A stretch of 26,720 nt of DNA from a virus. Its lineage: Duplodnaviria; Heunggongvirae; Uroviricota; Caudoviricetes. This document shows, in pieces, positions 1 through 26,720 of this stretch. A program made the translations under genes and the position numbers. Below the pieces are notes generated by a model. The model was not told where the DNA came from, did not search any database, and was given only the letters and a program-made list of their open reading frames with translations. The stretch is taken from the IMG/VR virus record IMGVR_UViG_2734482772_000016, positions 1 through 26,720 of that record; one strand, 5' to 3'. Positions within the stretch are counted from its first letter, which is position 1, and the number at the start of each line of letters is the position of its first letter.

Positions 1-393
1 ATGTCTGAACCCTTATCAGGCGGCGGAGCTGTGGCAGTCACCATCGGTGGTGCCAGTGTGTTTGGCCTTCTCACCAATACCGATTTCGGGGTTGTGGTGG
101 GCGCGTTTGCCGGAGCGCTTTTTGTTGTCACGCAGCAGAAAGAAATCCCGGTATGGCGAATGGCTATCCACCTGCTCGTCGCGTTTGTGGTTGGCGTTCT
201 GGGGGCTGGCGTGGCTGCGTCACTGATGCAGTGGCTGACCCACTACAACGACAAGCCACTCGATGCATTGTGTGCGGTCGGTGTCTCGGCGTTATCCATC
301 AAGATACTGACCTTTCTTTATCAACAGGAAATTTCATCGCTGTTCGGCCTGTTTTCCAGACTGCGCGGCGGAGGGGGTGGAAATGGAAAGTAG
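1..393 (+). CDS. putative holin (small multi-pass membrane protein)
   Basis: 130 aa with three to four glycine-rich hydrophobic segments (GGAVAVTIGGASVFGLL, FGVVVGAFAGALFVV, LLVAFVVGVLGAGVAASLM) and a charged Gly-rich C-terminus; sits just upstream of the endolysin. Confidence 0.5.
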   Translation: MSEPLSGGGAVAVTIGGASVFGLLTNTDFGVVVGAFAGALFVVTQQKEIPVWRMAIHLLVAFVVGVLGAGVAASLMQWLTHYNDKPLDALCAVGVSALSIKILTFLYQQEISSLFGLFSRLRGGGGGNGK

Positions 394-679
394 CCTTGCC
401 GGTATCGTGAACGTCTGGCTGTGTCTCGCCATTGTGCTGGGGTTGTTTGTGTATCGCCGCCACGGTGCAGCGCATAAACCGATGATTACCTGGCTGGCGT
501 ACTGGCTGATGCTCGGCTACGTCATCATCCCGTTCCGCTGGCTGTCCGGTACGTACACACATTCCAGCTGGCTGGTTGTGGCGCTGAATCTGGTTTTCTG
601 TGCGCTTATCGTGTGGGCGCACGGGAATTTGTCAAAAATCCTTTCGTTACTGAGGCATCCACATGAAATCAAAAGATAA
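377..679 (+). CDS. small membrane protein of the lysis cassette (holin or antiholin partner)
   Basis: 100 aa with three predicted transmembrane segments (LAGIVNVWLCLAIVLGLFVY, WLAYWLMLGYVIIPF, WLVVALNLVFCALIVW); overlaps both the upstream holin-like gene and the downstream endolysin. Confidence 0.4.
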   Translation: MEMESSLAGIVNVWLCLAIVLGLFVYRRHGAAHKPMITWLAYWLMLGYVIIPFRWLSGTYTHSSWLVVALNLVFCALIVWAHGNLSKILSLLRHPHEIKR

Positions 680-1208
680 AATTTTTGATGAAGTCCTGGG
701 CAAAGAAGGTGGTTATGTCAATCACCCGGATGATAAGGGCGGTCCGACCAAATGGGGCATTACGGAAAAAGTCGCCCGTGCCCACGGATACCGTGGTGAT
801 ATGCGCGATTTAACCCGCGAGCAGGCGCTGGACATCCTTGAAGCCGATTACTGGTACGGTCCGCGATTCGACCAGGTCGCCGCATTATCCCCTGATATTG
901 CCGCAGAGCTGTGTGATACCGGTGTGAATATGGGGCCAACCGTGGCGTCCAGAATGCTTCAGCGCTGGCTGAATGTGTTCAATCTGCGCGGCAGGCTGTA
1001 CCCGGATATGGACGCAGACGGACGCATCGGGCCTCGTACCATCAGTGCATTGCGCGCCTTCCTGAATAATCGCGGTCAGGACGGTGAACGGGTGATGCTG
1101 ACGGCCCTGAACTGTACGCAGGGGGACCGCTATCTGGAACTGGCGGAGAAACGCGAGGCTAACGAATCGTTTGTTTATGGCTGGCTGAAGGAGCGCGTGG
1201 CGATATGA
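663..1208 (+). CDS. endolysin, glycoside hydrolase family 108-like N-terminal domain with C-terminal peptidoglycan-binding domain
   Basis: 181 aa; the N-terminal stretch DEVLGKEGGYVNHPDDKGGPTKWGIT matches the conserved GH108 (DUF847-type) muramidase motif as I recall it; the C-terminal half resembles a PG-binding module; no signal or SAR segment. Confidence 0.8.
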   Translation: MKSKDKIFDEVLGKEGGYVNHPDDKGGPTKWGITEKVARAHGYRGDMRDLTREQALDILEADYWYGPRFDQVAALSPDIAAELCDTGVNMGPTVASRMLQRWLNVFNLRGRLYPDMDADGRIGPRTISALRAFLNNRGQDGERVMLTALNCTQGDRYLELAEKREANESFVYGWLKERVAI

Positions 1209-1387
1209 CGCGTCAGCACTGGACCCACAGAACGCCACGTAAAGCCGCGCGCTGTGTTCTGGCCCTGTTTCTGGTGATGTTGCTTCCGGTGGGATGCACA
1301 GACATTAACAGAACGGGACAGCTGTTAGACGCGGCGGCGCAGGTCTGCCGGATTATTGACGGCATCCGGCAGTGTTCACAGAACTGA
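1205..1387 (+). CDS. small putative lipoprotein (possible Rz1-like outer-membrane spanin or other lysis-associated lipoprotein)
   Basis: 60 aa; basic N-region, hydrophobic core and a lipobox-like LPVGC followed by a roughly 29-residue mature peptide; start overlaps the endolysin stop (ATGA). Confidence 0.35.
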   Translation: MTRQHWTHRTPRKAARCVLALFLVMLLPVGCTDINRTGQLLDAAAQVCRIIDGIRQCSQN

Positions 1388-1614
1388 TTTTTCGAAGGTC
1401 TGACACAGTGAGCATTATCAGATTTACAGAATACAGAGGTTCAGGAGGTGCTGGCGCTGTCATGGTGCTCGCTGAACGCATCACCCATTTTTACCGTCAG
1501 TACGGTACACATGATGGCACGGTCATTGAACTGGATACCGGGAAAAACGTGTTTGTTCTTGAAAATCCCGACGAAGTTCAGCGCAGGATTGAACAGGCTC
1601 AGAAGGACACTTAA
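1372..1614 (+). CDS. hypothetical phage protein (start uncertain; alternative ATG at 1462 preceded by AGGAGGTG)
   Basis: Open frame on the late-gene strand between the lipoprotein and the gp27-like gene; no recognisable motif. Confidence 0.3.
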   Translation: MFTELIFRRSDTVSIIRFTEYRGSGGAGAVMVLAERITHFYRQYGTHDGTVIELDTGKNVFVLENPDEVQRRIEQAQKDT

Positions 1615-2114
1615 TGGCGTGGTCACAGGATATCAGGGACAAAGTCCGTAACGGGTACATCTTTGACCAGCTTCCGCTGGATATCGTCGCCATGAAGTTC
1701 GCCGTGCCGCACGACACCGCGCGGCGCTGGAAAACGCAGGCGATGAAGAACGGCGACGACTGGGACAAGCTGCGGGCCGCTCACGCGCTCGCCGGTGACG
1801 GACTGGAAAGTGTCGCCCGCACCGTGCTTATCAGTCTGGTGGTGAAGTGTCAGACGACGCTTGAACGGCTGAACCAGAACCCGGACATCCCGCCGCAGGA
1901 GTCCGTCGAACTGCTGGCGAGTCTGTCCGACAGTCTCAGTAAGGCGGTGGCCAGCAGCAAAAAAATCCTGCCGGAAACCGACCGGCTCGCCACGGCACTG
2001 GAAGTGGTGCAGCGGCTCGGCGCGTTCATCAAGGAGCGTCACCCGGCACAGTATGCCCCGTTTCTTGAGGTGCTCGAAGGCTTCGCTAAAGAGCTTGAGG
2101 ATAATTTCAGTTAA
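1614..2114 (+). CDS. Mu gp27-like protein (DUF1804-type), candidate small terminase subunit
   Basis: 166 aa, AAGGA-like ribosome-binding site upstream, sits just upstream of the large terminase apart from the inserted methyltransferase, as gp27 does in Mu; N-terminal region looks helix-turn-helix-like. Confidence 0.6.
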   Translation: MAWSQDIRDKVRNGYIFDQLPLDIVAMKFAVPHDTARRWKTQAMKNGDDWDKLRAAHALAGDGLESVARTVLISLVVKCQTTLERLNQNPDIPPQESVELLASLSDSLSKAVASSKKILPETDRLATALEVVQRLGAFIKERHPAQYAPFLEVLEGFAKELEDNFS

Positions 2115-2120
2115 CCACAG

Positions 2121-2150
2121 CGGCCCGGTTTTCCGGGCCGTCTGATATTC
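2121..2150 (+). terminator. candidate intrinsic terminator or RNA stem-loop
   Basis: Perfect 8-bp GC-rich stem CGGCCCGG (2121..2128) and CCGGGCCG (2133..2140) around a TTTT loop, followed by the T-containing run TCTGATATTC; lies in the 46-bp gap between the gp27-like gene and the methyltransferase. Confidence 0.4.
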
Positions 2151-2160
2151 GGGATTTGTA

Positions 2161-2901
2161 ATGCAAAAACAGATTATTGGTAACGCAACGTTGTATTGCG
2201 GTGATGTTCTTGATGTGCTGCCGGCGTTATCCGAACGTTTTGATGCCGTCATTACCGACCCGCCTTACAGCAGTGGTGGCACACATAAATCAGACCGCAG
2301 CATGGCCCCTTCGGACAAGTATGTCGGTCACACCCAGTATGCCGAGTTCAGCGGGGATAACCGCGACCAGCGCAGCTGGGCATACTGGAGCACCCTGTGG
2401 ATGTCCGGGGCTGCCCGCCTTGTGCGCCCCGGTGGTTATGTCATGGTGTTCAGTGACTGGCGACAGCTTCCCACCATGACCGACGTTTTTCAGGCCGGTG
2501 GTGTGCTGTGGCGTGGTCTTGTTGTCTGGGATAAAACGCAGGCTTCCCGTGCGCCACACACCGGCTATTTCCGGCATCAGGCCGAGTATGTGGTCTGGGG
2601 CAGCAACGGAAAACTCGACAAATGTCCGCACGGTGGCCCGTTCCCGGGTGTGATTACGCAGCGTGTTGTCCCGTCCGAAAAACTGCACATGACCGCAAAG
2701 CCGGTTCAGCTGATGGCCGAGCTGGTTAAACCGCTGGCACCGGATGCGCACGTTCTCGATCCGTTTATGGGAAGCGGCACCACCGCCATCCCGGTACTTG
2801 CCCGTGGCGGACGGTTTACCGGCATTGAAATGACTAACCAGTATTTTGATATCGCCTGCGCACGTATCGAAAAAGCGCAGGCAGAAGCAGCGCAGGTGTG
2901 A
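2161..2901 (+). CDS. orphan DNA N6-adenine (amino) methyltransferase, beta-class
   Basis: 246 aa; catalytic motif IV DPPY near the N-terminus (VITDPPYSSGG) and SAM-binding motif I FxGxG near the C-terminus (DPFMGSGTT), the beta-class circular permutation. No endonuclease partner on either side. Confidence 0.85.
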   Translation: MQKQIIGNATLYCGDVLDVLPALSERFDAVITDPPYSSGGTHKSDRSMAPSDKYVGHTQYAEFSGDNRDQRSWAYWSTLWMSGAARLVRPGGYVMVFSDWRQLPTMTDVFQAGGVLWRGLVVWDKTQASRAPHTGYFRHQAEYVVWGSNGKLDKCPHGGPFPGVITQRVVPSEKLHMTAKPVQLMAELVKPLAPDAHVLDPFMGSGTTAIPVLARGGRFTGIEMTNQYFDIACARIEKAQAEAAQV

Positions 2902-2902
2902 C

Positions 2903-4543
2903 GTGGCAAAACGTAAACTTTCCATTAAAGAGTTTCAGAGAAGCCTGCAGGAGTACATCGCCAACCTCCGCCAGACCATCGAGGCTGAATGTCTGGGGTT
3001 CGATGTAAACCCGCAGGCCACACAGGCCCGCCGGGCGGCAGTCTGTGACCCGGTGACGGGCTACGATTATTTTGTCGAAAACTATTTCCCGCACTACGTC
3101 CGCAACCCGGCAAAAAGCGAGCTGCATAAATACCTGTTCAGCCGTCTGCCACAGGTTGTGGCAAGCCCGGACCCGGAGAACGACGCCATCGCCGCGCCCC
3201 GTGGTGAAGCAAAATCCACGCTGGTGACTCAGTTGTTTACCCTGTGGACCATTATCCGGGCCATTAAGCATTATCCGGTCATCATTATGGACAGTATCGA
3301 CCAGGCTTATCCGATGCTGGAAGCCATCAAGGCTGAACTGGAATTTAACCCCCGTTTAAAAAACGATTTCCCGGAAGTGTGCGGGCAGGGTCGCGTCTGG
3401 CGTATGGGGACCATCGTCACGGCCAACAATATCAAGGTGACCGTTGCCGGTAGTGGTAAAAAGCTGCGTGGTCTGCGCCACGGTCCGTACCGTCCTGACC
3501 TGGTTATCCTCGACGACATCGAGAACGACGAGATGGTGCGTAACCCGGAGCAGCGCGACAAGCTGCATGACTGGCTCACCAAAACCGTGATGCCGCTGGG
3601 CGAGGCTGGTGGTAAAACAGATATTATTTATATCGGAACCATCCTGCATTACGACTCCGTACTGTCGCGCACACTCAATAACCCGATGTGGAAAACGGCC
3701 CGTTTTAAGGCCGTCATTCAGTGGCCTGCCAATATGAAGCTGTGGGACGAGTGGGAAGAACTCATCCGCAACAAACAGCCGGAAGCAGCAGAGGCACTTT
3801 ACCGACAGAACGAAGCCGACATGCTCGCCGGGTCGGTGGTGTCATGGGCGGCGCGTCCCCTGCTGGCACTGATGAAAATCCGTGTCCGTGACGGTCATGA
3901 CACCTTTGATTCTGAATACCAGAACGACCCGGTCAGCGGTGAAGATGCGCTGTTTGCGGGCTGCATTAAGTTCTGGGTTAACCGTCTTGATGAATGGGTG
4001 TTTTATGGTGCTGTTGACCCCAGTCTCGGGAAGAAAAACAAAAACCGCGACCCGTCGGCCATTCTCGTGGGGGGCTTTAACCGCTTTACCGGCATTCTGG
4101 ATGTGGTTGAAGCCGATATCCGCCGACGTCTACCAAACAAACTTATCGAAGACGTGATTAAGTATCAGCGGGAATACCACTGTCTGTGCTGGTCGTTTGA
4201 GTCCGTCCAGTTTCAGGAGTTTCTGCGTACCGTGCTGGTTGAGCGTTCGGCGGCGCTGGGCGTGCCGGTTCCGGCGCTGCCGGTCATCCCGCTGGAGGAT
4301 AAAGCGCTGCGTATTGAGTCCCTTCAGCCGCATATGGCCAACGGCCTGATCCGCATCAGTCCGGCACATCAGACGCTGATTGACCAGCTGCGCCACTACC
4401 CCAAAGCCGACCACGATGATGGCCCGGACTGTCTGCACATGCTGTGGACGCTGGCGGTATCGCGCAGCGCAAAATTTCAGATACACACCCCACGCAGCAG
4501 CGGGCGTGACCGTGGCGGGCGTTTTGGTTCAGGAGGATGGTAA
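2903..4543 (+). CDS. terminase large subunit (Mu gp28-like)
   Basis: Deviant Walker A-like segment APRGEAKST, acidic Walker B-like LVILDDIEND, correct position upstream of the portal. Start chosen as GTG 2903 (AGG seven nt upstream, two nt after the methyltransferase stop); the longest ORF starts at 2846, overlapping the methyltransferase by 56 nt. Confidence 0.8.
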   Translation: MAKRKLSIKEFQRSLQEYIANLRQTIEAECLGFDVNPQATQARRAAVCDPVTGYDYFVENYFPHYVRNPAKSELHKYLFSRLPQVVASPDPENDAIAAPRGEAKSTLVTQLFTLWTIIRAIKHYPVIIMDSIDQAYPMLEAIKAELEFNPRLKNDFPEVCGQGRVWRMGTIVTANNIKVTVAGSGKKLRGLRHGPYRPDLVILDDIENDEMVRNPEQRDKLHDWLTKTVMPLGEAGGKTDIIYIGTILHYDSVLSRTLNNPMWKTARFKAVIQWPANMKLWDEWEELIRNKQPEAAEALYRQNEADMLAGSVVSWAARPLLALMKIRVRDGHDTFDSEYQNDPVSGEDALFAGCIKFWVNRLDEWVFYGAVDPSLGKKNKNRDPSAILVGGFNRFTGILDVVEADIRRRLPNKLIEDVIKYQREYHCLCWSFESVQFQEFLRTVLVERSAALGVPVPALPVIPLEDKALRIESLQPHMANGLIRISPAHQTLIDQLRHYPKADHDDGPDCLHMLWTLAVSRSAKFQIHTPRSSGRDRGGRFGSGGW

Positions 4544-4546
4544 TTA

Positions 4547-6142
4547 ATGGCACAGCTTGTTGATATTTACGGACGCCCGCTGAAACGTGAGGCACTCAAA
4601 ACAACGCAGTCGGTCAGAGTGGCGGAACGGCTGCGCATTTATCCCGACCACCCGTCCCGTGGTCTGAACATCAGAAAACTGCCGCGTATTCTGGAAGCAG
4701 CCGAACGCGGTTATCTTCCGGCGCAGGCGATGCTGTTTGCGGATATGGAAGAACGTGATGGCCATCTGTTCGCCGAGATGGAAAAGCGCAAAAAAGCGTT
4801 GCTGACGCTGGACTGGTCGGTGGAGCCGCCCCGCAATGCCTCGAAGGCAGAAAAGGAGCTGGCCGCCGCCGTGGATGAATGGCTGCACGGCATCCCGGAC
4901 ATGGAGGACATCATCCTCAACGGGATGAGCAGTGTCGGTTACGGCTTCAGCTGTCAGGAAATCAGCTGGGCGTTCGTGGATAAAACATGGTTACCGGATG
5001 CGGTGACGCTGCGCCCGCATAACTGGTTCATAACTCTGCCGGAACACAATGACGAACTCCGGCTGGATGACGGCAACCGTGGGGAAGACGGTAAGGACGG
5101 TTCCGCATTGTGGCCGTTCGGCTGGCTAGTTCACCGTTACAACGCCCGGTCGGGGTTCCTGGGTTCATCCGGCCTGTTCCGCGTACTGGTCTGGCCGTAT
5201 CTGTTTAAAAACTTTGCGCTGCGTGATATGGCGGAATTTCTGGAGATTTACGGTCTTCCAGCGCGCATTGCGTACTATGCACAGGGCACCAGTGACGAAG
5301 ACCGGGATAACATTCTTGAGGCGCTGGTCAATCTGGGTCATGAAGCGGTGGCAGCCCTGCCGCAGGGTAACGAAATCGAGTTCAAGGAAGCCGCATCCGG
5401 CGGACCGGAGGCGTTCATGTCGATGGTGGAATGGGCGGAGCGTACCACCTCAAAAGTGATTCTGGGCAGTACGCTGACCAGCCAGGCCGACGGTAAAACC
5501 TCCACCAACGCACTGGGTAATGTCCATAACGAGGTCCGGCACGACATTCTGACCGCTGATGCACGCCAGCTGTCCGGCATGTTCAGCAGTCTGATACAGA
5601 TGATGGCCAGTCTCAACGGCTGGCAGGATATCCCGTCACGCCGTCTTCCGCGCCTGGTGTTTGATGTGCAGCAGGAAGCTGACATTAAGGGCGTGGCGGA
5701 AGCCGTCAGCGTGTTGCTCAACAATGTGGGGATGAAGGATATTCCGGCGTCGTGGGTGCGCAAAAAAACCGGCATCCCCACCCCGAAAGACGGCGAAGAG
5801 GTGCTGGTGCCGGTGGCACAGTCTCTCCCTGTGCAGGCTGGCCTCAGCCAGCTGCGTGAGCGGATGAATGTTGCCGCACTCAGTCAGCAGGACAACGGGG
5901 AGGACGACCCGGCACAGAACGCCATCGACCGGGCAGAGCTTCCGGCAGAGGCCATCGCGCAGGGGATGAACGAACTGGTGGCCCCACTGGTGCAGGCCAT
6001 ACAGGAAGGCCGGGATGCAGACGAGGCTATGAACGTACTGGCGGAAGCGTGGCCGGAGCTGCCGGATGAAACGTTGCGGCAGTTGCTGACGCAGGCATTC
6101 TTTGTGGCGGATATCTGGGGGCGACTGAATGCCGACTGTTGA
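4547..6142 (+). CDS. portal protein (Mu gp29/H-like, DUF935-type)
   Basis: 531 aa directly downstream of the large terminase with a ribosome-binding site (GGAGG, then ATG at 4547); size and position fit a Mu-type portal. Confidence 0.8.
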   Translation: MAQLVDIYGRPLKREALKTTQSVRVAERLRIYPDHPSRGLNIRKLPRILEAAERGYLPAQAMLFADMEERDGHLFAEMEKRKKALLTLDWSVEPPRNASKAEKELAAAVDEWLHGIPDMEDIILNGMSSVGYGFSCQEISWAFVDKTWLPDAVTLRPHNWFITLPEHNDELRLDDGNRGEDGKDGSALWPFGWLVHRYNARSGFLGSSGLFRVLVWPYLFKNFALRDMAEFLEIYGLPARIAYYAQGTSDEDRDNILEALVNLGHEAVAALPQGNEIEFKEAASGGPEAFMSMVEWAERTTSKVILGSTLTSQADGKTSTNALGNVHNEVRHDILTADARQLSGMFSSLIQMMASLNGWQDIPSRRLPRLVFDVQQEADIKGVAEAVSVLLNNVGMKDIPASWVRKKTGIPTPKDGEEVLVPVAQSLPVQAGLSQLRERMNVAALSQQDNGEDDPAQNAIDRAELPAEAIAQGMNELVAPLVQAIQEGRDADEAMNVLAEAWPELPDETLRQLLTQAFFVADIWGRLNADC

Positions 6143-7295
6143 CGATGTTGACCTGGGTTATGCGTACACCCTGAAGCCGGAAGAAGCGATTAAGTATTTC
6201 GAAAGCAAGGGATACGTCATCGGCTTCCGCTGGCACGATGTGAAGGACATCGCACACGCCCGGGCGTTCACGGTGGCGGGCGTGCTGAAACTGGATGTTC
6301 TGAAGGATATCCGTGATGGCCTGACGGCGGCACTGGCTGACGGCGGGACGTTCCGGGAGTTTGCCGCACAACTGGAGCCGCTGCTGGAGAAAAAAGGCTG
6401 GCTGGGTAAGCGGCTGATTGTGGACGAGGACACCGGCGAACTGTACGGCAGACAACTGACGCCGCGCCGGTTGCGCACGATATTTGATACCAATATTCAG
6501 TCGTCATATAACGCCGGACGTTATCAGCAGCAGATGGCGAACGTGGCTGACCGGCCTTATTTTGAGCGCGTGGCAGTGATGGACCTTCACACCCGCCCGA
6601 AACACGCCGCCCTGAACGGTTTTACCGCCCGGGCGGATGATCCTGTCTGGGCGTTTTTATATCCCCCGGACGGTTATCACTGCCGCTGCCGTATCCGGGC
6701 GCGTTCGGCGTCGGATGTGGAGAAATATGGCCTGACGGTACAGAGCAGCGAGGGGCGACTGGTTGAGGTTGAGCAGGAATATGGCCAGCCGGGCCAGACC
6801 ATCAGAACAATGGGGCTGAAGATGCCGGACGGCTCCGTGTATACCGCCGACCCGGGCTTCGGTTTTAACCCCGGCAAAGTGGCATGGCAGCCGGAACTGG
6901 AAAAATACGATTACCGCAGCGCCCGCCAGTATGTCACCGGCACACTGACCGGGCCGGATTTTGCCCGGGGACTGGCGAACGTCAGCGAACTGGATGCGCG
7001 CCAGCGATATCCGCTGGCCATCCGTTCACCGGAACAGGTCGCCGCCACGGGCGCTGCACGGCAGACGGTAAACCTTACGGCTGACGTCATGAAGCGCCTC
7101 AGTGCAACAGACACGTCCCCGACCGCCGCCGACTATGTGCTGATGCAGCAAACCATCGAACGGGCGGAGCATGTCACGCAGGACGGTAACGCGTGGCGGT
7201 ATGCGTTACAGTCGGGCGACCGCTGGTCAGTGGCGACGGTGGGGGATGACGTGCTGACAGACTGGGTTATGCAGGACACACCGGAGGCATCATGA
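6129..7295 (+). CDS. head morphogenesis protein (Mu F/gp30-like)
   Basis: 388 aa, overlaps the portal stop; position and size match Mu F. Confidence 0.75.
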   Translation: MPTVDDVDLGYAYTLKPEEAIKYFESKGYVIGFRWHDVKDIAHARAFTVAGVLKLDVLKDIRDGLTAALADGGTFREFAAQLEPLLEKKGWLGKRLIVDEDTGELYGRQLTPRRLRTIFDTNIQSSYNAGRYQQQMANVADRPYFERVAVMDLHTRPKHAALNGFTARADDPVWAFLYPPDGYHCRCRIRARSASDVEKYGLTVQSSEGRLVEVEQEYGQPGQTIRTMGLKMPDGSVYTADPGFGFNPGKVAWQPELEKYDYRSARQYVTGTLTGPDFARGLANVSELDARQRYPLAIRSPEQVAATGAARQTVNLTADVMKRLSATDTSPTAADYVLMQQTIERAEHVTQDGNAWRYALQSGDRWSVATVGDDVLTDWVMQDTPEAS

Positions 7296-7843
7296 GCAGC
7301 GGTAAACTGGATATTAAGATTGATTTAAGCGCGTATAACACCACGCTGGGGAAACTGATTCGTTCCGTGAAGGACCGGCGCGACCTGATGACGGCGCTTG
7401 CAGGCTCCATGCTGGATGCGGTTGAGACTAACTTTGAACAACAGGGTCGCCCGAAATGGATGGGCTGGAGTCCGGCCTATGCGAAACGGCGCGGCCCCGG
7501 GCAAATCCTTCAGAAGTCCGGACGACTGGCTGCCAGTATCCGCTCTGCGGTTAACAATAACGAGGCCACGGTCGGGACAAACGTCCGTTATGCCCGTATC
7601 CACAACGAAGGCGGCGAGATCCGCCATCAGGCACGGACGCAGAACCTGTATTTTAAACAGTACAAAAACGGCAGCGTCAGCAGCCGTTTTGTGAAAAAGC
7701 GCAACAGTAATTTTGTGCAGAGCGCAACGGTCGGAGCGTATACGGTCAACATGCCAGCGCGCCCCTTCCTTCAGCTCGTGCAGGACGACATCGACGAGCT
7801 GGAGAACACCGCAAACCGCTATTTTGCGCGTGTGATTGACTGA
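7292..7843 (+). CDS. virion morphogenesis protein (Mu G-like)
   Basis: 183 aa, ATGA overlap with the F-like gene; Mu G position. Confidence 0.7.
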   Translation: MSSGKLDIKIDLSAYNTTLGKLIRSVKDRRDLMTALAGSMLDAVETNFEQQGRPKWMGWSPAYAKRRGPGQILQKSGRLAASIRSAVNNNEATVGTNVRYARIHNEGGEIRHQARTQNLYFKQYKNGSVSSRFVKKRNSNFVQSATVGAYTVNMPARPFLQLVQDDIDELENTANRYFARVID

Positions 7844-7998
7844 ATGGCGACAAACGCGCTGTAATCGGCTGTGACAGCATAAACGCTTCATGGATGAGGC
7901 ATAACAGCACCGCATCCCATAAATGCCGTCAGAATCGTTTTTAAAAGGGTTTTAAAAACGGTTTTATTTCCCCTTTTATCCTTTCGCGTTATGGCAGG

Positions 7999-8013
7999 GT
8001 GCTGAACACCCTC
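7999..8013 (+). promoter_or_regulatory. copy A of a repeated 15-bp motif GTGCTGAACACCCTC; candidate late-promoter or activator-binding element
   Basis: Exact 15-mer also present at 19915..19929; both lie in the only real intergenic gaps of the late region, 31 to 39 bp upstream of a start codon; contains the imperfect dyad GTGcTgaaCAC. Confidence 0.35.
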
Positions 8014-21400: not shown

Positions 21401-21973
21401 ATGAATACGGTTGATTTATTCCGTGCCATGTTACCGCCGGTCAGCTATGACCCGAACGGGAAATATATTTCAGCAGAACTGAACGCAGAAGCAGCCATTA
21501 TGGATGAAGTAAAAGCGTCAGCTGCACGAGTGCTCGCATCTGTCACACCATTTTACGCATCCATGACGCTGTCTGACTGGGAACGAGTGTATGGAGTAAT
21601 ACCCCGCGATGGTGCCACACAGCAGGAACGCCGAGAAAATATTCTTATAAAGATGGCTGCAACTGGTGGGTTATCTATCCCTTATTTTAAACAACTTGCA
21701 GCCAGCCTCGGGTACACCATAACAATTACTGAACTCCATCCATTCAGAACGGGGGTAAACCGATGTGGTGATCGTCTCTATATAACAGATGCCCGATGGA
21801 TTTGGCAGGTTAATGTCACAGGAAGCAAAACGCCAGCTTACAGATTCAGAACCGGAGTATCTGCAGCCGGGGAACCGTTACTTTCCTTTGGTGCCCCTGT
21901 ACTGGAAGAAACATTTAAAGACCTTAAACCCGCTTTTACTTATTGCCATTTCACATATAAGGAGGAGCAGTAA
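21401..21973 (+). CDS. Mu gp48-like tail protein (DUF2313-type)
   Basis: 190 aa between the J-like gene and the tail fibre; ribosome-binding site GAGAG before ATG 21401. Confidence 0.6.
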   Translation: MNTVDLFRAMLPPVSYDPNGKYISAELNAEAAIMDEVKASAARVLASVTPFYASMTLSDWERVYGVIPRDGATQQERRENILIKMAATGGLSIPYFKQLAASLGYTITITELHPFRTGVNRCGDRLYITDARWIWQVNVTGSKTPAYRFRTGVSAAGEPLLSFGAPVLEETFKDLKPAFTYCHFTYKEEQ

Positions 21974-22713
21974 TGCAAAATCTGATGCCCCCGATAAATA
22001 CACCGGATCAATTGTTTCATGATGGTGACCCCACTCAGGGGATAGAAGGAACCATCGTAACTGCTGATTATTTAAATAATCAGCAGGGAGCAACCCGTGA
22101 TTTACAGCAGGAACTCCTTAATGTTCTTGGTGATGCACATATTCAACCTGACCCCAAAAAAACGGATCAGCTACTTACCGCGCTTCGTGCGTTGCTGTTA
22201 AGCCGCAAAAACCCATTTGCCGATATCAAATCGGACGGCACGGTGAAAACGGCTCTCGAAAACCTTGGATTAACCAACGCGATAATTGGTGATACCTGTA
22301 AAGAAGCAGGGTTCTACTTAGGAAGTGAACTTGCCCCTTATCTTATGCATGAGGACACTCACACAGCCATCCGCCTGGTAACGTTGGATAGCGTCCGTCG
22401 AGTAACAACCACTACTTACACTATTAATTATTACGCGAATGGCTTAATTCAGATTTTAGGTATGACCCCAACAGTAAGCTCTTTGACTCCCCAGACCATG
22501 ACATTCCCAGTGGCGTTCCCAAATGCTTGTGTTCGGTTTGCATTGCACAACCAAGAAAGTGGCGTCCCATCCTACAACATGGCGATGTATTCTAATTTAA
22601 GCAGAACGGGCGTGAAGATATGGGGAGTGGCGAACATTCTTGGCAACGGTGGAAGCCCGACGCTGGGCGCGCTACCGAACGCTGAAATCTCTTATGAAGC
22701 ATGGGGTTACTGA
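21973..22713 (+). CDS. tail fibre protein, currently expressed form (constant N-terminus joined to a variable C-terminus)
   Basis: 246 aa with an AAGGAGG ribosome-binding site; the candidate crossover site lies inside the gene at about codon 98 and is followed by a Ser/Thr/Gly/Asn-rich receptor-binding-like region. Confidence 0.7.
   Translation: MQNLMPPINTPDQLFHDGDPTQGIEGTIVTADYLNNQQGATRDLQQELLNVLGDAHIQPDPKKTDQLLTALRALLLSRKNPFADIKSDGTVKTALENLGLTNAIIGDTCKEAGFYLGSELAPYLMHEDTHTAIRLVTLDSVRRVTTTTYTINYYANGLIQILGMTPTVSSLTPQTMTFPVAFPNACVRFALHNQESGVPSYNMAMYSNLSRTGVKIWGVANILGNGGSPTLGALPNAEISYEAWGY
22254..22278 (+). repeat. candidate left crossover site (gix/hix-like) of an invertible tail-fibre segment
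   Basis: TCTCGAAAACC-TT-GGATTAACCAAC: the left half GAAAACC matches the hix/gix half-site as I remember it; it pairs in inverted orientation with 24211..24238. Confidence 0.35.
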
Positions 22714-22714
22714 T

Positions 22715-23152
22715 ATGACATTTTTCTACAGTGCAGCACATAATATTTTTGTTTCAGATATTAACAAAGAGAGCTATGAGGATGCTGGATCGTGGCCAGC
22801 AGATGCAAAAGAAGTTTCAGATGAATTATTTTATCAATATTCGCAAAATCCACCGAAAGGCAAAATTCGCTCCCATGCAGATGGCCTGCCCATCTGGGAA
22901 GATGCCCCGCCTATGACTGAAGAAGAACTTATTCTGAAAAATAAGAATGAAAAACAAATTCGTATCGATGAAGCCAATAATTATATGCACGGTAAGCAAT
23001 GGCCAGGTAAAGCGGCTATTGGTCGTCTGAAAGGTGAGGAACTGGCGCAATATAATTTGTGGCTGGATTATCTGGACGCACTGGAGCTGGTCGATACTTC
23101 CGGTGCGCCAGATATTGAATGGCCTACGCCTCCGGCAGTTCAGGCCAGATGA
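22715..23152 (+). CDS. tail fibre assembly protein (Mu U-like)
   Basis: C-terminus DTSGAPDIEWPTPP is the characteristic tail-fibre-assembly ending; start is either ATG 22715 or ATG 22694. Confidence 0.65.
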   Translation: MTFFYSAAHNIFVSDINKESYEDAGSWPADAKEVSDELFYQYSQNPPKGKIRSHADGLPIWEDAPPMTEEELILKNKNEKQIRIDEANNYMHGKQWPGKAAIGRLKGEELAQYNLWLDYLDALELVDTSGAPDIEWPTPPAVQAR

Positions 23153-23726
23153 CATCCGGCGCGGTGCTGGTATCTGTTGCCGTCACCGCGTCAATGTAAT
23201 CCAGCACAGCGTTAAGTCGGGTGGTTTCTGCCTGCGTCAGCTTCCGCCCGGCCTGCAATTTCAGTTGAATCAGACTGATGGAAGCCATTGCAGCATCAAT
23301 CAGCGACTGGCGCTGTGCTTCTGCTGCGTCTACTGCGGCACTATGCTGTGCCTCAGTATCTGTCACCCATTTCTCACCATCCCATTTATCATATGGTGTT
23401 AACGGGGCAATAGTGGTTGTATTTTCAGGGTAATCACCCAGAGCTGTGATTTCTTTCGATTCTCCTGTTTCGGTGCTATAGATGATTTCACCGCGATGGT
23501 CTGCAACATATTCCCACCCGGTTGAATCTGCATTGCGGCAGATTGCAAAACCGTCCTTGTGCTCACCCGGTGCATCAGTGCTGGAATGCGCAGGGATACC
23601 AAAACCAGCAACAAGATACTCAACTGATAACGTCATGTATTCGCGCGTTTCTCCATCATAGTTGTAGACCGTTATCTGACCATCTGTTGTTGCATATCCG
23701 TTTTCGTCTAAAATCACCTGTTCCAT
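23124..23726 (-). CDS. alternative tail fibre assembly protein (U'-like), inverted orientation
   Basis: 200 aa on the - strand ending DTSTAPDVIWPELPEA; convergent with and overlapping the + strand assembly gene by 29 bp, as in the Mu G / P1 C segments. Confidence 0.65.
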   Translation of the reverse strand: MEQVILDENGYATTDGQITVYNYDGETREYMTLSVEYLVAGFGIPAHSSTDAPGEHKDGFAICRNADSTGWEYVADHRGEIIYSTETGESKEITALGDYPENTTTIAPLTPYDKWDGEKWVTDTEAQHSAAVDAAEAQRQSLIDAAMASISLIQLKLQAGRKLTQAETTRLNAVLDYIDAVTATDTSTAPDVIWPELPEA

Positions 23727-24263
23727 TTATGCGGTCCTCACAATGTAGTTAAACGCAATGTTTCTCGGTCGATTCTCCAGGGCCGTTGGAACCTGTGATG
23801 AAGCATCAAATGTAAACCCACCATTTTTATACCCGGATGTGTTTGATGCGGCTGTAAGTACAAAATTAGTGGTATCTCCAGCCGATGACTCACTCCATCC
23901 AAATACCCCAGTCATTTGCCTTGCTGTGTTTTGATTATATGAGTTGGATACTATGCGAACTGTTCCGGAGATATTTCTTATGGCATCTTCCTGGGCGCTC
24001 ATTAGCTTGCGCCCGCTATCTACACCTCGCCCATCATCCCAACCACGAATGAATTCACCCCGCAGGTCTGGAAGGACGCCGGATGGATAAACAGCAGCCA
24101 ACGCAGGTAGTAACGTTTTATTGAAAGATGAACCGTTGCACTTCATCCATCCTGTTGGTGGTGTAGCCAGTGGATATGGTACAGGTACACCAACGGGTAA
24201 CGCTGAGCCTTCTCCCAAACCAACGTTTATGAAAATGCAGAAATAACAAGCAAATGGCATCAT
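23727..24263 (-). CDS. alternative tail fibre C-terminal variable domain (S'-like), silent in the present orientation
   Basis: 178 aa on the - strand with a Ser/Thr/Asn/Gly-rich C-terminus; its 5' end runs across the candidate right crossover site, so it would be expressed only as a fusion after inversion. Confidence 0.55.
   Translation of the reverse strand: MMPFACYFCIFINVGLGEGSALPVGVPVPYPLATPPTGWMKCNGSSFNKTLLPALAAVYPSGVLPDLRGEFIRGWDDGRGVDSGRKLMSAQEDAIRNISGTVRIVSNSYNQNTARQMTGVFGWSESSAGDTTNFVLTAASNTSGYKNGGFTFDASSQVPTALENRPRNIAFNYIVRTA
24211..24238 (+). repeat. candidate right crossover site (gix/hix-like), inverted relative to 22254..22278
   Basis: Reverse complement reads TTTTCATAAACG-TT-GGTTTGGGAGAA; right half GGTTTG and the core resemble the hix/gix consensus; 12 of 19 positions match the left site in the alignment I made. 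Confidence 0.35.
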
Positions 24264-24385: not shown

Positions 24386-24578
24386 GGGTAAATCATCAGC
24401 ATGAGACTAATAATTTAGCGTCCAATTCTGGGCTTTTGGGTTGCGCGCTCTCCGCCCAGAATTGTTCGCCAATTAGCCCAGAAAAAAACGCGAAGTTACA
24501 CATGAATCAATTCCTTCTGCTTTTAATATGGTTTATCTGGTCACTGCACCAGTTCCGTTTTAATTTTTTGCACCTGAC

Positions 24579-26720
24579 TCAAAATTGCCGCATATCCGGC
24601 ATTCCGGGGGGTAAATCTTTCGGCACAGGCGCATCCGGTACAGGTTGTGTGGCACCACAGTTCCAGTTAATCACTGGCGCATCACCGTTCACATCCGACT
24701 CCCCTTCCAGATGAATGTGCGTACCATTGAGAAATATGCTTCCGTCCTTCGTCAGCACCAGCCTTGCCTTACCACAGCAGAGTTCAAGATGCTCACCGGC
24801 AGAATAAACTGCTGTTTGTCCGGTGTTTTCCTTCATTGTCTTGCCCACCGAGAAGGTGACGTTATTCCCCACATTGACGCTGTAGCCCATTCCCACCATC
24901 AGTGATTTATGCAGCCCTACCTGTGAGGACTGCAACAACGCCACCGAGGTATTCATAATGCCGCCTACCGTCGTCTGGTAAGCCACACCCACCGTCAGCG
25001 CACGAATGATCCCCACCTTTTCAACCTGGTTTGATCCCACTTTGATAATCTGGTTACTGCCCACCGTTTCCACCTGGTTGACACCAACCGTCTGTATCTG
25101 ATTAACGCCAATGTTCTGGATCTGGTTATTGGTAACGGTGATCGCCTGGTTGTTACCTATTTTTTCGGCATGGTTGTTTATCACATCAGTGGTGCGGTTA
25201 TTCAGCACCTCGGTGTTCATGTTCTTCTGCGCGTGGATGTAGACCTGTTCTTTCCCTGTCGCATCGTCAAACTTCAGTTCATTAAACCCGCTGCCCTTAT
25301 AGGTTTTCGAGCGGATCGTCATCTGCGTCTTCGTCCCCGGCAGGCTGCCGGGGGTGCGGTTTTCCTGGTGGTAGGTACGCCCCATAATGATCGGCTGGTC
25401 CGGATCGCCGTTGAGGAAGTCCACAATGACCTCCTGACCCACACGCGGTATCGCCAGGTTACCAAAGCCGGTGCCTGCCCACGCCTGTGCCACACGGATC
25501 CAGCATGAACTTTCCTGGTTTGACGGGTTATAGCGGTCCCAGTTAAATTTCACCCGCACGCGGCCATGTTCATCACAGAAGATTTCCTCGCCTGCCGGTC
25601 CCGTCACGACGGCGCTCTGCGGGCCGTCCACCAGCGGTTTCAGCAACGGCTGTGGCCGCCATGTCCGGTCTGCCGGGATTACCGCAAAGTGGTTATCCAG
25701 CGTGGTGCCTGAACCCCTGCGTCCCGGTACCGCCTGCGGCTGTTCGCCGTGAAGATCGCTCGCCACCACCTGCCATTCCCGGTTCAGGTTCGCCTGCGGA
25801 TGCCCCGTCAGCACAATTCGCCGTCCCGGCCATATCTCCGGCGAACGGCTTGTTCCGCGCGCCACTTCTGCGTTGTTGCGCCAGCCATCCATCTGCCAGC
25901 GGGCAAAGTTCTGCCCGTGGGCACCCTTGAAACGTCCGGGGTAGTCATACACTTCATACTGTGTGCGCTGGTAATCCTGGTACTGGCCTTCCTGATCAAA
26001 ACGCCCTGCCCAGCCGGGTCGTTTAAAGGTGTAGTCTTTGGTCACCACGGAAGAAGGGCGGATTTGTGCGCTGTAGCGAAACTGGCTGATGCAGAGGGTG
26101 CTCACCTCGGTACGGGTGTTCGGATTCCAGGGGATCTCAAAGGACTCCGGCAGATAACGCACGGTATCGCACAGGACCAGGCTCTGGTCGGTACTTTTTT
26201 GCGCGTGCTCCTCATAAAAGAAGATGCCTTCCTCCGCCGCCATCCGGCACAGGAAATCGTAATCAGTCTCACCGTACTGGACACAAAACTCACGGGAAGG
26301 ATGTGGCTCGCTGAACAGCGGGCTCCACTCGGTCACCCCGTTTTCCTGCAATATCGTGCCGAGGATGCTTTCGATGTCCTCATTCTGGAAGATACGGAAG
26401 TTCTGGCGCAGCCCTGTGCGCCACAGCGGTGGGCACACCTTCATGCTGTACAGCATCTGGTTTTTGTCGTTCTCCCCCAGTTCAAACCAGGTCACCATAC
26501 CTTTCACCCGGCGCTGTACGTCATCGCCCTGCCATATCGTCAGGTAGGCCATTTTGTCGAGGATCTGCTGGAATTCAAGGGAGAGAAACTGCTGGCTGAC
26601 CAGAGAGAGATCGAGGGAAAAAAGCGAAGAGAGTGACTGGTTCAGATGAAAGGAGACCACCGCAAAAGCATCCGGTGGCAGGCCGTCCACTTCCAGCGTG
26701 AAACGTAATCCGGTTGACAT
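24579..26720 (-). CDS. vgrG: type VI secretion system tip/spike protein VgrG, no C-terminal effector extension
   Basis: 713 aa with a gp27-like N-terminal region, an OB-fold-like middle and gp5-like beta-helix repeats (IGNNQAITVTNNQIQNIGVNQIQTVGVNQVETVGSNQIIKVGSNQVEKVG); ends shortly after the repeats. Confidence 0.9.
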   Translation of the reverse strand: MSTGLRFTLEVDGLPPDAFAVVSFHLNQSLSSLFSLDLSLVSQQFLSLEFQQILDKMAYLTIWQGDDVQRRVKGMVTWFELGENDKNQMLYSMKVCPPLWRTGLRQNFRIFQNEDIESILGTILQENGVTEWSPLFSEPHPSREFCVQYGETDYDFLCRMAAEEGIFFYEEHAQKSTDQSLVLCDTVRYLPESFEIPWNPNTRTEVSTLCISQFRYSAQIRPSSVVTKDYTFKRPGWAGRFDQEGQYQDYQRTQYEVYDYPGRFKGAHGQNFARWQMDGWRNNAEVARGTSRSPEIWPGRRIVLTGHPQANLNREWQVVASDLHGEQPQAVPGRRGSGTTLDNHFAVIPADRTWRPQPLLKPLVDGPQSAVVTGPAGEEIFCDEHGRVRVKFNWDRYNPSNQESSCWIRVAQAWAGTGFGNLAIPRVGQEVIVDFLNGDPDQPIIMGRTYHQENRTPGSLPGTKTQMTIRSKTYKGSGFNELKFDDATGKEQVYIHAQKNMNTEVLNNRTTDVINNHAEKIGNNQAITVTNNQIQNIGVNQIQTVGVNQVETVGSNQIIKVGSNQVEKVGIIRALTVGVAYQTTVGGIMNTSVALLQSSQVGLHKSLMVGMGYSVNVGNNVTFSVGKTMKENTGQTAVYSAGEHLELCCGKARLVLTKDGSIFLNGTHIHLEGESDVNGDAPVINWNCGATQPVPDAPVPKDLPPGMPDMRQF

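Follow-up and report, generated by a model that had tools for sequence, protein, structure and literature searches.

The DNA analysed here is a stretch of 26,720 nucleotides (nt), positions 1 to 26,720 of the IMG/VR record IMGVR_UViG_2734482772_000016 (Caudoviricetes), which is called the window throughout. Its subject is a gene for a DNA methyltransferase of 246 amino acids (aa) that stands between a DUF1804 gene and terL, the gene of the large terminase. The first 24.5 kb of the window are the late region of a Mu-like transposable Escherichia coli prophage. This region opens with holins, a GH108 endolysin, small open reading frames (ORFs), DUF1804, the methyltransferase, terL and a DUF935 portal gene, followed by Mu F-like and G-like genes, a protease, the major head gene, a contractile tail, the baseplate and tail fibres. 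The features of the locus are as follows:

2161..2901, plus strand: methyltransferase coding sequence, ATG 2161 to TGA 2899-2901, 246 aa, beta-class N6_N4 amino-methyltransferase
2257..2268, plus strand: motif IV DPPY (catalytic), aa 33-36, read from the sequence
2764..2784, plus strand: motif I FMGSGTT, which binds S-adenosylmethionine (SAM), aa 202-208, read from the sequence
2150..2892, plus strand: cassette of about 743 nt that is present or absent among prophages, defined by junction alignments; empty sites carry the 7 nt TG(T/C)ATAC instead
2120..2141, plus strand: GC-rich hairpin, an element of the prophage backbone, 9-bp stem GCGGCCCGG/CCGGGCCGU with a UUUU loop
2894..2905, plus strand: putative coupling junction AGGTG-TGA-C-GTG, identical in sequence in empty-site prophages
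1614..2114, plus strand: DUF1804 gene (Mu gp27-like, putative small terminase or DNA-binding protein), Pfam PF08822 1.8e-52, phrog_756 1.8e-67
2903..4543, plus strand: terL, phrog_38 1.1e-143, TIGR01630 2.4e-24, start as in RefSeq for the sibling prophages

The product of 2161..2901 is a beta-class, SAM-dependent DNA amino-methyltransferase with intact motifs. Motif IV lies in the N-terminal and motif I in the C-terminal part, which is the order of the beta class. Among 60 homologues TDPPYSSG is invariant, as are D200, F202, G204 and S205, and L199, P201 and M203 are nearly so. Pfam PF01555 (N6_N4_Mtase) matches at 6.5e-23 with 82.3 bits, above its gathering cutoff of 26.7, and methyltransferase matches were returned by NCBIfam, PHROG (phrog_67, 1e-55) and PADLOC (MTase_II, the Type II methyltransferase model, 1.6e-64 over the full length). 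An AlphaFold2 model built with the 60 homologues has a mean predicted local distance difference test score of 84.9, with two loops of low confidence (aa 37-70 and aa 131-137). The top 45 Foldseek matches of this model are beta-class DNA methyltransferases, the best being CcrM (6PBD), M.BceJIV (8URK) and M1.HpyAVI (5HFJ) at E values of about 1e-16 to 1e-15; a rotifer N4-cytosine enzyme, TTHA0409, M.MboIIA, M.RsrI and M.PvuII are further structural matches, and a sequence search of the PDB agrees with Foldseek on the class. Motif positions, PF01555 and model thus bear out a sequence-only reading of this DNA, which had called a 246-aa beta-class methyltransferase with DPPY ahead of FMGSGTT. The gene is already annotated in RefSeq as a DNA methyltransferase, nothing in its sequence marks it as unusual and it is a familiar kind of phage cargo; newly defined here are the boundaries of the cassette, the assignment of the hairpin to the backbone, the position of the stop codon within the ribosome-binding site of terL and the natural series of prophages with and without the gene.

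The target of the enzyme is most likely the N6 position of adenine, as indicated by DPPY rather than SPPY in motif IV and by nearest relatives that are adenine enzymes. Beta-class N4-cytosine enzymes typically carry SPPY or SPPF, and DPPY is invariant in the present family; in addition, adenine enzymes head both the sequence and the structure matches, and the JGI annotation labels the relatives as adenine-specific. An N4-cytosine rather than N6-adenine methyltransferase is improbable on these grounds, although PF01555 holds both kinds, the bdelloid N4-cytosine enzyme 8S9M is among the top structure and sequence matches, and the target base was left open for homologues of Burkholderia phages (PMC3091744). 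Still less can be said for an enzyme that acts on single-stranded DNA or RNA in the manner of DpnA, M.EcoGIX or M.EcoGII, or that is otherwise not a methyltransferase of double-stranded DNA. The best PDB match by sequence carries the deposited name 'DpnA', the PRK13699 model gives a distant full-length match, and some beta-class enzymes do use single-stranded DNA or RNA (PMC7544214, PMC7736820). However, the thresholds of those family models are not reached (75.6 bits against a cutoff of 244 for PRK13699, NCBIfam NF010253), and the named relatives are all DNA enzymes. To our knowledge, Mu-type replication with headful packaging has no obligatory single-stranded stage, which also makes such a substrate extremely unlikely.

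Positions 1300-4700 of the window are 99.9% identical to prophages of E. coli Ec55 and other strains, and 98% identical to the one that disrupts eutC of the enteropathogenic E. coli (EPEC) strain E2348/69; the Ec55 sibling is inserted in ypdF. A megablast of the same segment against sequenced phages gave no match. The stretch was found in 55 of 5,426 complete E. coli genomes, 35 of which have one match over at least 80% of it, with the methyltransferase annotated in every match listed. In the remaining genomes (about 20) the methyltransferase is missing, while the flanks are 96.5-97.6% identical. Natural siblings without the gene include those of UMNF18 and Z1323CEC0014. Filled and empty sites have their sequence in common up to 2149 and again from about 2893, and in E. 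coli-type prophages DUF1804 and terL are either 788 nt or 52 nt apart. Only 11 nt of the cassette lie upstream of the ATG. The matches of DUF1804 and terL, together with the slot left empty in about 20 E. coli prophages, support the earlier claim of an extra gene between the gp27-like gene and terL.

An extra gene between otherwise adjacent genes is one mark of a moron, and it is seen here (a 52-nt gap in empty-site siblings, abutting genes in phage B3). The other marks, a promoter and terminator of its own and a base composition distinct from the flanks, are absent: the G+C content is 57.2% in the cassette, 60.1% in DUF1804 and 56.1% in terL, and G+C at third codon positions is 62% in the cassette vs 66-76% in the flanks. 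The term moron, as used in the sequence-only reading, therefore holds for the extra gene but not for independent signals or composition. At the downstream border, the last methyltransferase codons and the stop (CAG GTG TGA) are backbone sequence and at the same time the Shine-Dalgarno sequence of terL. A single nucleotide, C 2902, and not two as counted before, separates the methyltransferase TGA from the terL start codon GTG 2903, which agrees with the RefSeq annotation of the siblings. The Yersinia and Serratia loci described below keep this arrangement as CAGGTG-T(G/A)A-C-GTG.

A scan for sigma-70-like promoters over positions 1-8000 of the window found 0 sites on both strands, against 3.8 expected from shuffled sequences. 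In the E2348/69 and Ec55 siblings a Mor-family activator gene lies upstream of the holins, and the genes from holin to tail all follow it on one strand. Given the same strand, the lack of a promoter-like site in 8 kb and the stop inside the terL ribosome-binding site, the natural reading of the gene layout is that the methyltransferase would be co-transcribed, terL-coupled cargo of the late operon and not a self-contained moron; the late expression predicted earlier fits this layout. As an observation on the prophage as a whole, an 8-kb region that is devoid of sigma-70-like promoter matches fits activator-dependent late transcription of one long operon.

The placement directly before terL, with apparent coupling to it, in E. 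coli, Yersinia and Serratia prophages could alternatively indicate a phage-internal, epigenetic main role tied to the terminase, as a packaging mark or in the timing of late genes. A homologue in an E. coli HK97-like prophage likewise lies just upstream of HNH-TerS-TerL, and Dam methylation is known to act in P1 pac cleavage and in the transcription of Mu mom. Such a role is nevertheless very improbable, as near-identical prophages without the gene are common and as homologues occupy unrelated positions (between holin and endolysin, beside the tail sheath gene, after ogr, at prophage ends), so that linkage to packaging is not a property of the family.

The hairpin upstream of the gene pairs 2120-2128 with 2133-2141, and folding of 2095-2200 gave -32.8 kcal/mol (z = -2.5). 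It was not called in a terminator scan, as it has no proper T-run. The same hairpin is found in the methyltransferase-less prophages L003 and L004, and it is kept in the Yersinia locus with compensatory changes at the base of the stem. It is followed by the methyltransferase in Yersinia and at two IMG/VR loci, and by terL in the empty sites and in locus L120. Because it is present in empty-site siblings, the hairpin belongs to the prophage backbone and not to the methyltransferase cassette. The GC-rich hairpin that had been noted ahead of the gene thus exists, but not as a feature of the insert, and for the same reason a role as terminator or regulator of the insert was rejected. Possible functions are those of an attenuator, a stabiliser of mRNA ends or a protein site. 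More generally, the Mu-like prophages of this lineage share a conserved GGCCCGG-N4-6-CCGGGCC hairpin ahead of the packaging genes; each has one copy, which precedes by about 20-27 nt the next start codon, be it that of the methyltransferase or of terL (L003 2321-2342, L085 about 3960-3981, L120 about 5004-5027, L121 about 5047-5069).

Beyond E. coli, the methyltransferase fills the identical slot in one prophage each of Yersinia (83% protein identity) and Serratia (77%), which have different lysis cassettes. This conserved arrangement shows the gene to be an old resident of the slot, and the empty sites in E. coli are equally explicable as deletions. The methyltransferase is under strong purifying selection, with a ratio of non-synonymous to synonymous substitution rates (dN/dS) of 0.04-0.08 against Yersinia, Serratia and a divergent E. 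coli-type locus, as low as that of terL. Compared with the flanks, its dS is roughly doubled. In E. coli, prophages with flanks of 98-99% identity carry two alleles of the gene, the middle third of which is only about 87% identical; the changes affect 14-15 amino acids clustered at aa 64-109 (2350-2490 of the window, compared with loci L101, L103, L110, L113 and L115). The raised dS and the clustered patch point to an exchange of alleles by recombination. A specificity switch in this patch was considered and rejected, since it lies in or just before a helix that is variable in the family and outside the conserved loops. The exact protein is found on at least 1000 public contigs.

The enzyme belongs to a very large phage-borne family, with more than 7,500 homologues scored. 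Members occur in Mu-like, HK97-like, P2-like and BPP-1 phages and at varied genome positions. In a Mu-like prophage of Salmonella enterica (L088-L090, 4001-4753) a 62%-identical homologue stands among the lysis genes, with the holin on one side and the endolysin on the other. Its start and stop codons overlap the neighbouring genes by 4 nt on both sides, an unusual site for a methyltransferase. Other homologues lie at the end of a Delftia P2-like prophage beside the portal gene, between an invertase and a tail sheath gene, and after ogr in E. coli P2-like prophages; more are found in phage Chuche, BPP-1 (bpm), Smp131 and phages of Burkholderia, Ralstonia, Mycobacterium and Gordonia. The space from DUF1804 to terL (2115-2902 of the window, compared with L088, L136, L137 and L123-L131) is a cargo hotspot of Mu-like phages in its own right. 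In B3 and some IMG/VR Mu-like loci the two genes abut with nothing between them; D3112 has a reverse-strand ORF (orf25) there, a Klebsiella phage three small ORFs, and Salmonella other genes.

The methyltransferase is solitary, with no partner endonuclease beside it or elsewhere in the annotated siblings. The adjoining genes are DUF1804 and terL. The complete sibling prophages of E2348/69 and Ec55 list phage genes only, and no endonuclease, com or mom is annotated in them, with the limit that their hypothetical genes were not individually searched. The orphan status proposed from the sequence alone, and the check for a cognate endonuclease in complete prophages that came with it, thus turned out as expected. 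Nor is there a Com ORF between 2114 and 2161. Com is the device that controls Mom in Mu, and at several P2-like loci the homologous methyltransferase gene overlaps an upstream gene for a Com zinc-ribbon protein (PF10122 at about 1e-11 at loci L097 and L002). Burkholderia phage KS5 likewise carries methyltransferase gp20 together with Com gp21 (PMC3091744), and Com precedes Hia5 and Hin1523 (PMC3299994).

Taken together, the enzyme probably serves to pre-methylate progeny phage DNA against host restriction, as cargo of the late operon. The gene would be silent in the lysogen. On induction, it would be reached by read-through from a Mor-dependent late promoter upstream of the holins, across the backbone hairpin, and translated just before terL and in coupling with it. 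The enzyme, probably a homodimer like other beta-class enzymes, would then, shortly ahead of headful packaging, methylate the phage copies that have replicated within the chromosome together with the host DNA next to them. In this way progeny DNA may arrive modified in the next host and evade methylation-sensitive restriction enzymes. A counter-restriction role has been shown for Mom and proposed for the alpha-class methyltransferases that replace it in FluMu and Pnm1 (PMC3299994), and those who described relatives of the present enzyme predicted protection of phage DNA from restriction (PMC3091744).

Several points weigh against this proposal. We found no measurement of activity, target base or recognition sequence in the literature for this protein or its close family; literature searches on the RefSeq protein accession, the E2348/69 methylome, Bpm of BPP-1 and the methylomes of Mu-like prophages returned nothing. 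PF01555 spans N4-cytosine enzymes, with the rotifer enzyme among the structural matches. The gene is dispensable for the phage, since about 20 near-identical E. coli prophages do without it. The conserved hairpin could attenuate transcription into the methyltransferase, and both late transcription and translational coupling are deduced from gene layout.

A different view of the specificity has to be considered along with this role. Class and late expression would be the same, but the enzyme would have very relaxed or absent specificity like M.EcoGII, Hia5 and M.EcoGIX (SAY); it would shield the phage from many restriction systems and be toxic outside lytic growth. We regard this as a possibility of secondary rank. 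The P2-like homologues, about 55% identical, lie behind the translational regulator Com (PMC3091744), which also governs the cytotoxic Mom and precedes the non-specific Hia5 and Hin1523 (PMC3299994). Furthermore, 246 aa leave little room for a separate recognition domain, and among the methyltransferases of prophages promiscuity and silence in the lysogen are common (PMC4659465, PMC5778455). Yet the enzyme has no close homology with any proven non-specific one, its nearest solved relatives are sequence-specific (GANTC, GTWWAC, GAGG) and no Com gene is present at this locus. The loops after DPPY and at aa ~125-140, which probably touch the DNA, are nearly invariant from enterobacteria to distant relatives, which speaks for a defined DNA contact, although near-invariant loops fit a relaxed contact as well. 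The sequence-only reading had raised very relaxed specificity by likeness to described prophage enzymes; this does not follow from homology, as the M.EcoGII type shares only the catalytic and SAM motifs. A broader version is more doubtful still, namely that the whole beta-class family of about 250 aa is a compact adenine methyltransferase of low or no specificity and a substitute for Mom in transposable and P2-like phages. If so, it would be gated by Com in P2-like phages and by the late operon here, and would give E. coli prophages a second lineage of broad anti-restriction methyltransferases, separate from M.EcoGII; it would also be a smaller candidate reagent for footprinting by N6-methyladenine. 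Likewise, should the present enzyme prove relaxed, it would be a small new tool enzyme.

Solitary phage methyltransferases help to set the host reach of a temperate phage and with it the spread of its cargo. The prophage in question transposes into genomes of E. coli pathotypes, EPEC E2348/69 included, and the near-identical prophages with and without the gene are a natural test of the benefit of the enzyme to the phage.

Some further features of the window lie outside the methyltransferase locus. Upstream, a small ORF at 1372-1614 that abuts DUF1804 (phrog_7691, of unknown function) varies in length and content among near-identical prophages (153, 207 or 321 nt annotated; compared with L003 1609-1815 and L004 1610-1930) and is a second small variable spot. 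The right end of the prophage is near 24500, and the sequence beyond (~24400-26720) is host DNA that matches a vgrG / Rhs region of a type VI secretion system. The insertion site is neither eutC (E2348/69) nor ypdF (Ec55), in keeping with a phage that transposes. Imperfect inverted repeats with GCCCAGAA at 24411-24498 may be end-binding sites of the transposase. Of the prophage, the right end of the window carries only tail-fibre modules. These comprise opposed tail-fibre and tail-fibre-assembly modules at 21973-24263, with a Gp53-like C-terminus and Caudo_TAP on the plus strand and Collar and Caudo_TAP on the minus strand. Their arrangement recalls the G segment of Mu, and an imperfect inverted repeat of 16 nt lies at 22628-22643 / 24456-24471; neither the window nor the annotated siblings contain an invertase gene. 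Rfam and tRNA scans of the window were empty.

Among known systems, the closest are relatives of about 250 aa from temperate phages (KS5 gp20, Chuche, E. coli P2-like phages and Bpm of BPP-1), which belong to the same family with 43-55% identity over nearly the full length. They are likewise solitary, phage-borne and co-oriented with late genes. The relatives in KS5, the P2-like phages and Chuche are paired with Com, whereas the present gene has no Com, occupies the DUF1804-terL site and appears coupled to terL. No published specificity was found for the KS5, Chuche, P2-like or BPP-1 relatives.

M.EcoGII and M.EcoGI, non-specific enzymes of lambdoid and Stx prophages, share the beta class and carriage by prophages. 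M.EcoGII stays silent in lysogens, and its action is presumed to fall in the lytic phase (PMC5778455), a parallel to what we would expect of the present gene. It differs in size (349-352 aa vs 246 aa) and in site, between Q and stx in lambdoid phages. A comparison with a 352-aa homologue of the M.EcoGII type from phage 1720a-02 aligned only motif IV and motif X/I, with 34% identity over 56 aa. To judge from these alignments the two enzymes are not of the same subfamily, and the specificity of M.EcoGII is therefore not transferable. Kinship with a second "DNA adenine methyltransferase" of phage 1720a-02 was also rejected, as there is no similarity.

Hia5, Hin1523 and Nma1821 (of FluMu and Pnm1) and B3 ORF48 are solitary adenine methyltransferases of Mu-like prophages without mom, and they likely have the same counter-restriction role as proposed here (PMC3299994). 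They are of the alpha class and Dam-like, with DPPY near aa 190, and lie behind com in the position of mom (PMC3299994). With its beta motif order, the lack of com and another site, the present enzyme is set apart from the Hia5/Hin1523 family by that published description (PMC3299994). B3 ORF48 is placed in the middle of the tail genes, unlike the DUF1804-terL site, and kinship with it was rejected, as it is alpha-class and shows no significant similarity.

CcrM, M.BceJIV and M1.HpyAVI have the fold and motif order in common with the methyltransferase (query-normalised TM scores of 0.65-0.76) but only 21-24% sequence identity. Their specificities are GANTC, GTWWAC and the GAGG family, respectively, and their roles are cellular (cell cycle, regulation, restriction-modification) and not those of phage cargo. 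CcrM has an extra C-terminal domain, and the NCBIfam CcrM model (NF050803) reaches only 56.1 bits against a cutoff of 830, over the C-terminal SAM region only.

The functional analogue is Mom of Mu, a late DNA modification that guards the progeny of a transposable phage. Mom is an unrelated enzyme of acyltransferase fold whose product is N6-carbamoylmethyl-adenine, and its gene lies at the right end of Mu under the control of Dam, C and Com. Mu has both mom and com, neither of which is present in this prophage type; an adjacent or overlapping Com gene, the mark of an operon of the com-mom type, is absent here and present at the P2-like loci L097 and L002. If progeny DNA is indeed protected as proposed, the role of Mom in Mu would here be filled by an enzyme that has no relation to Mom, is encoded elsewhere in the genome and does without control by Com, much as the alpha-class methyltransferases of FluMu or B3 would fill it in their own phages.

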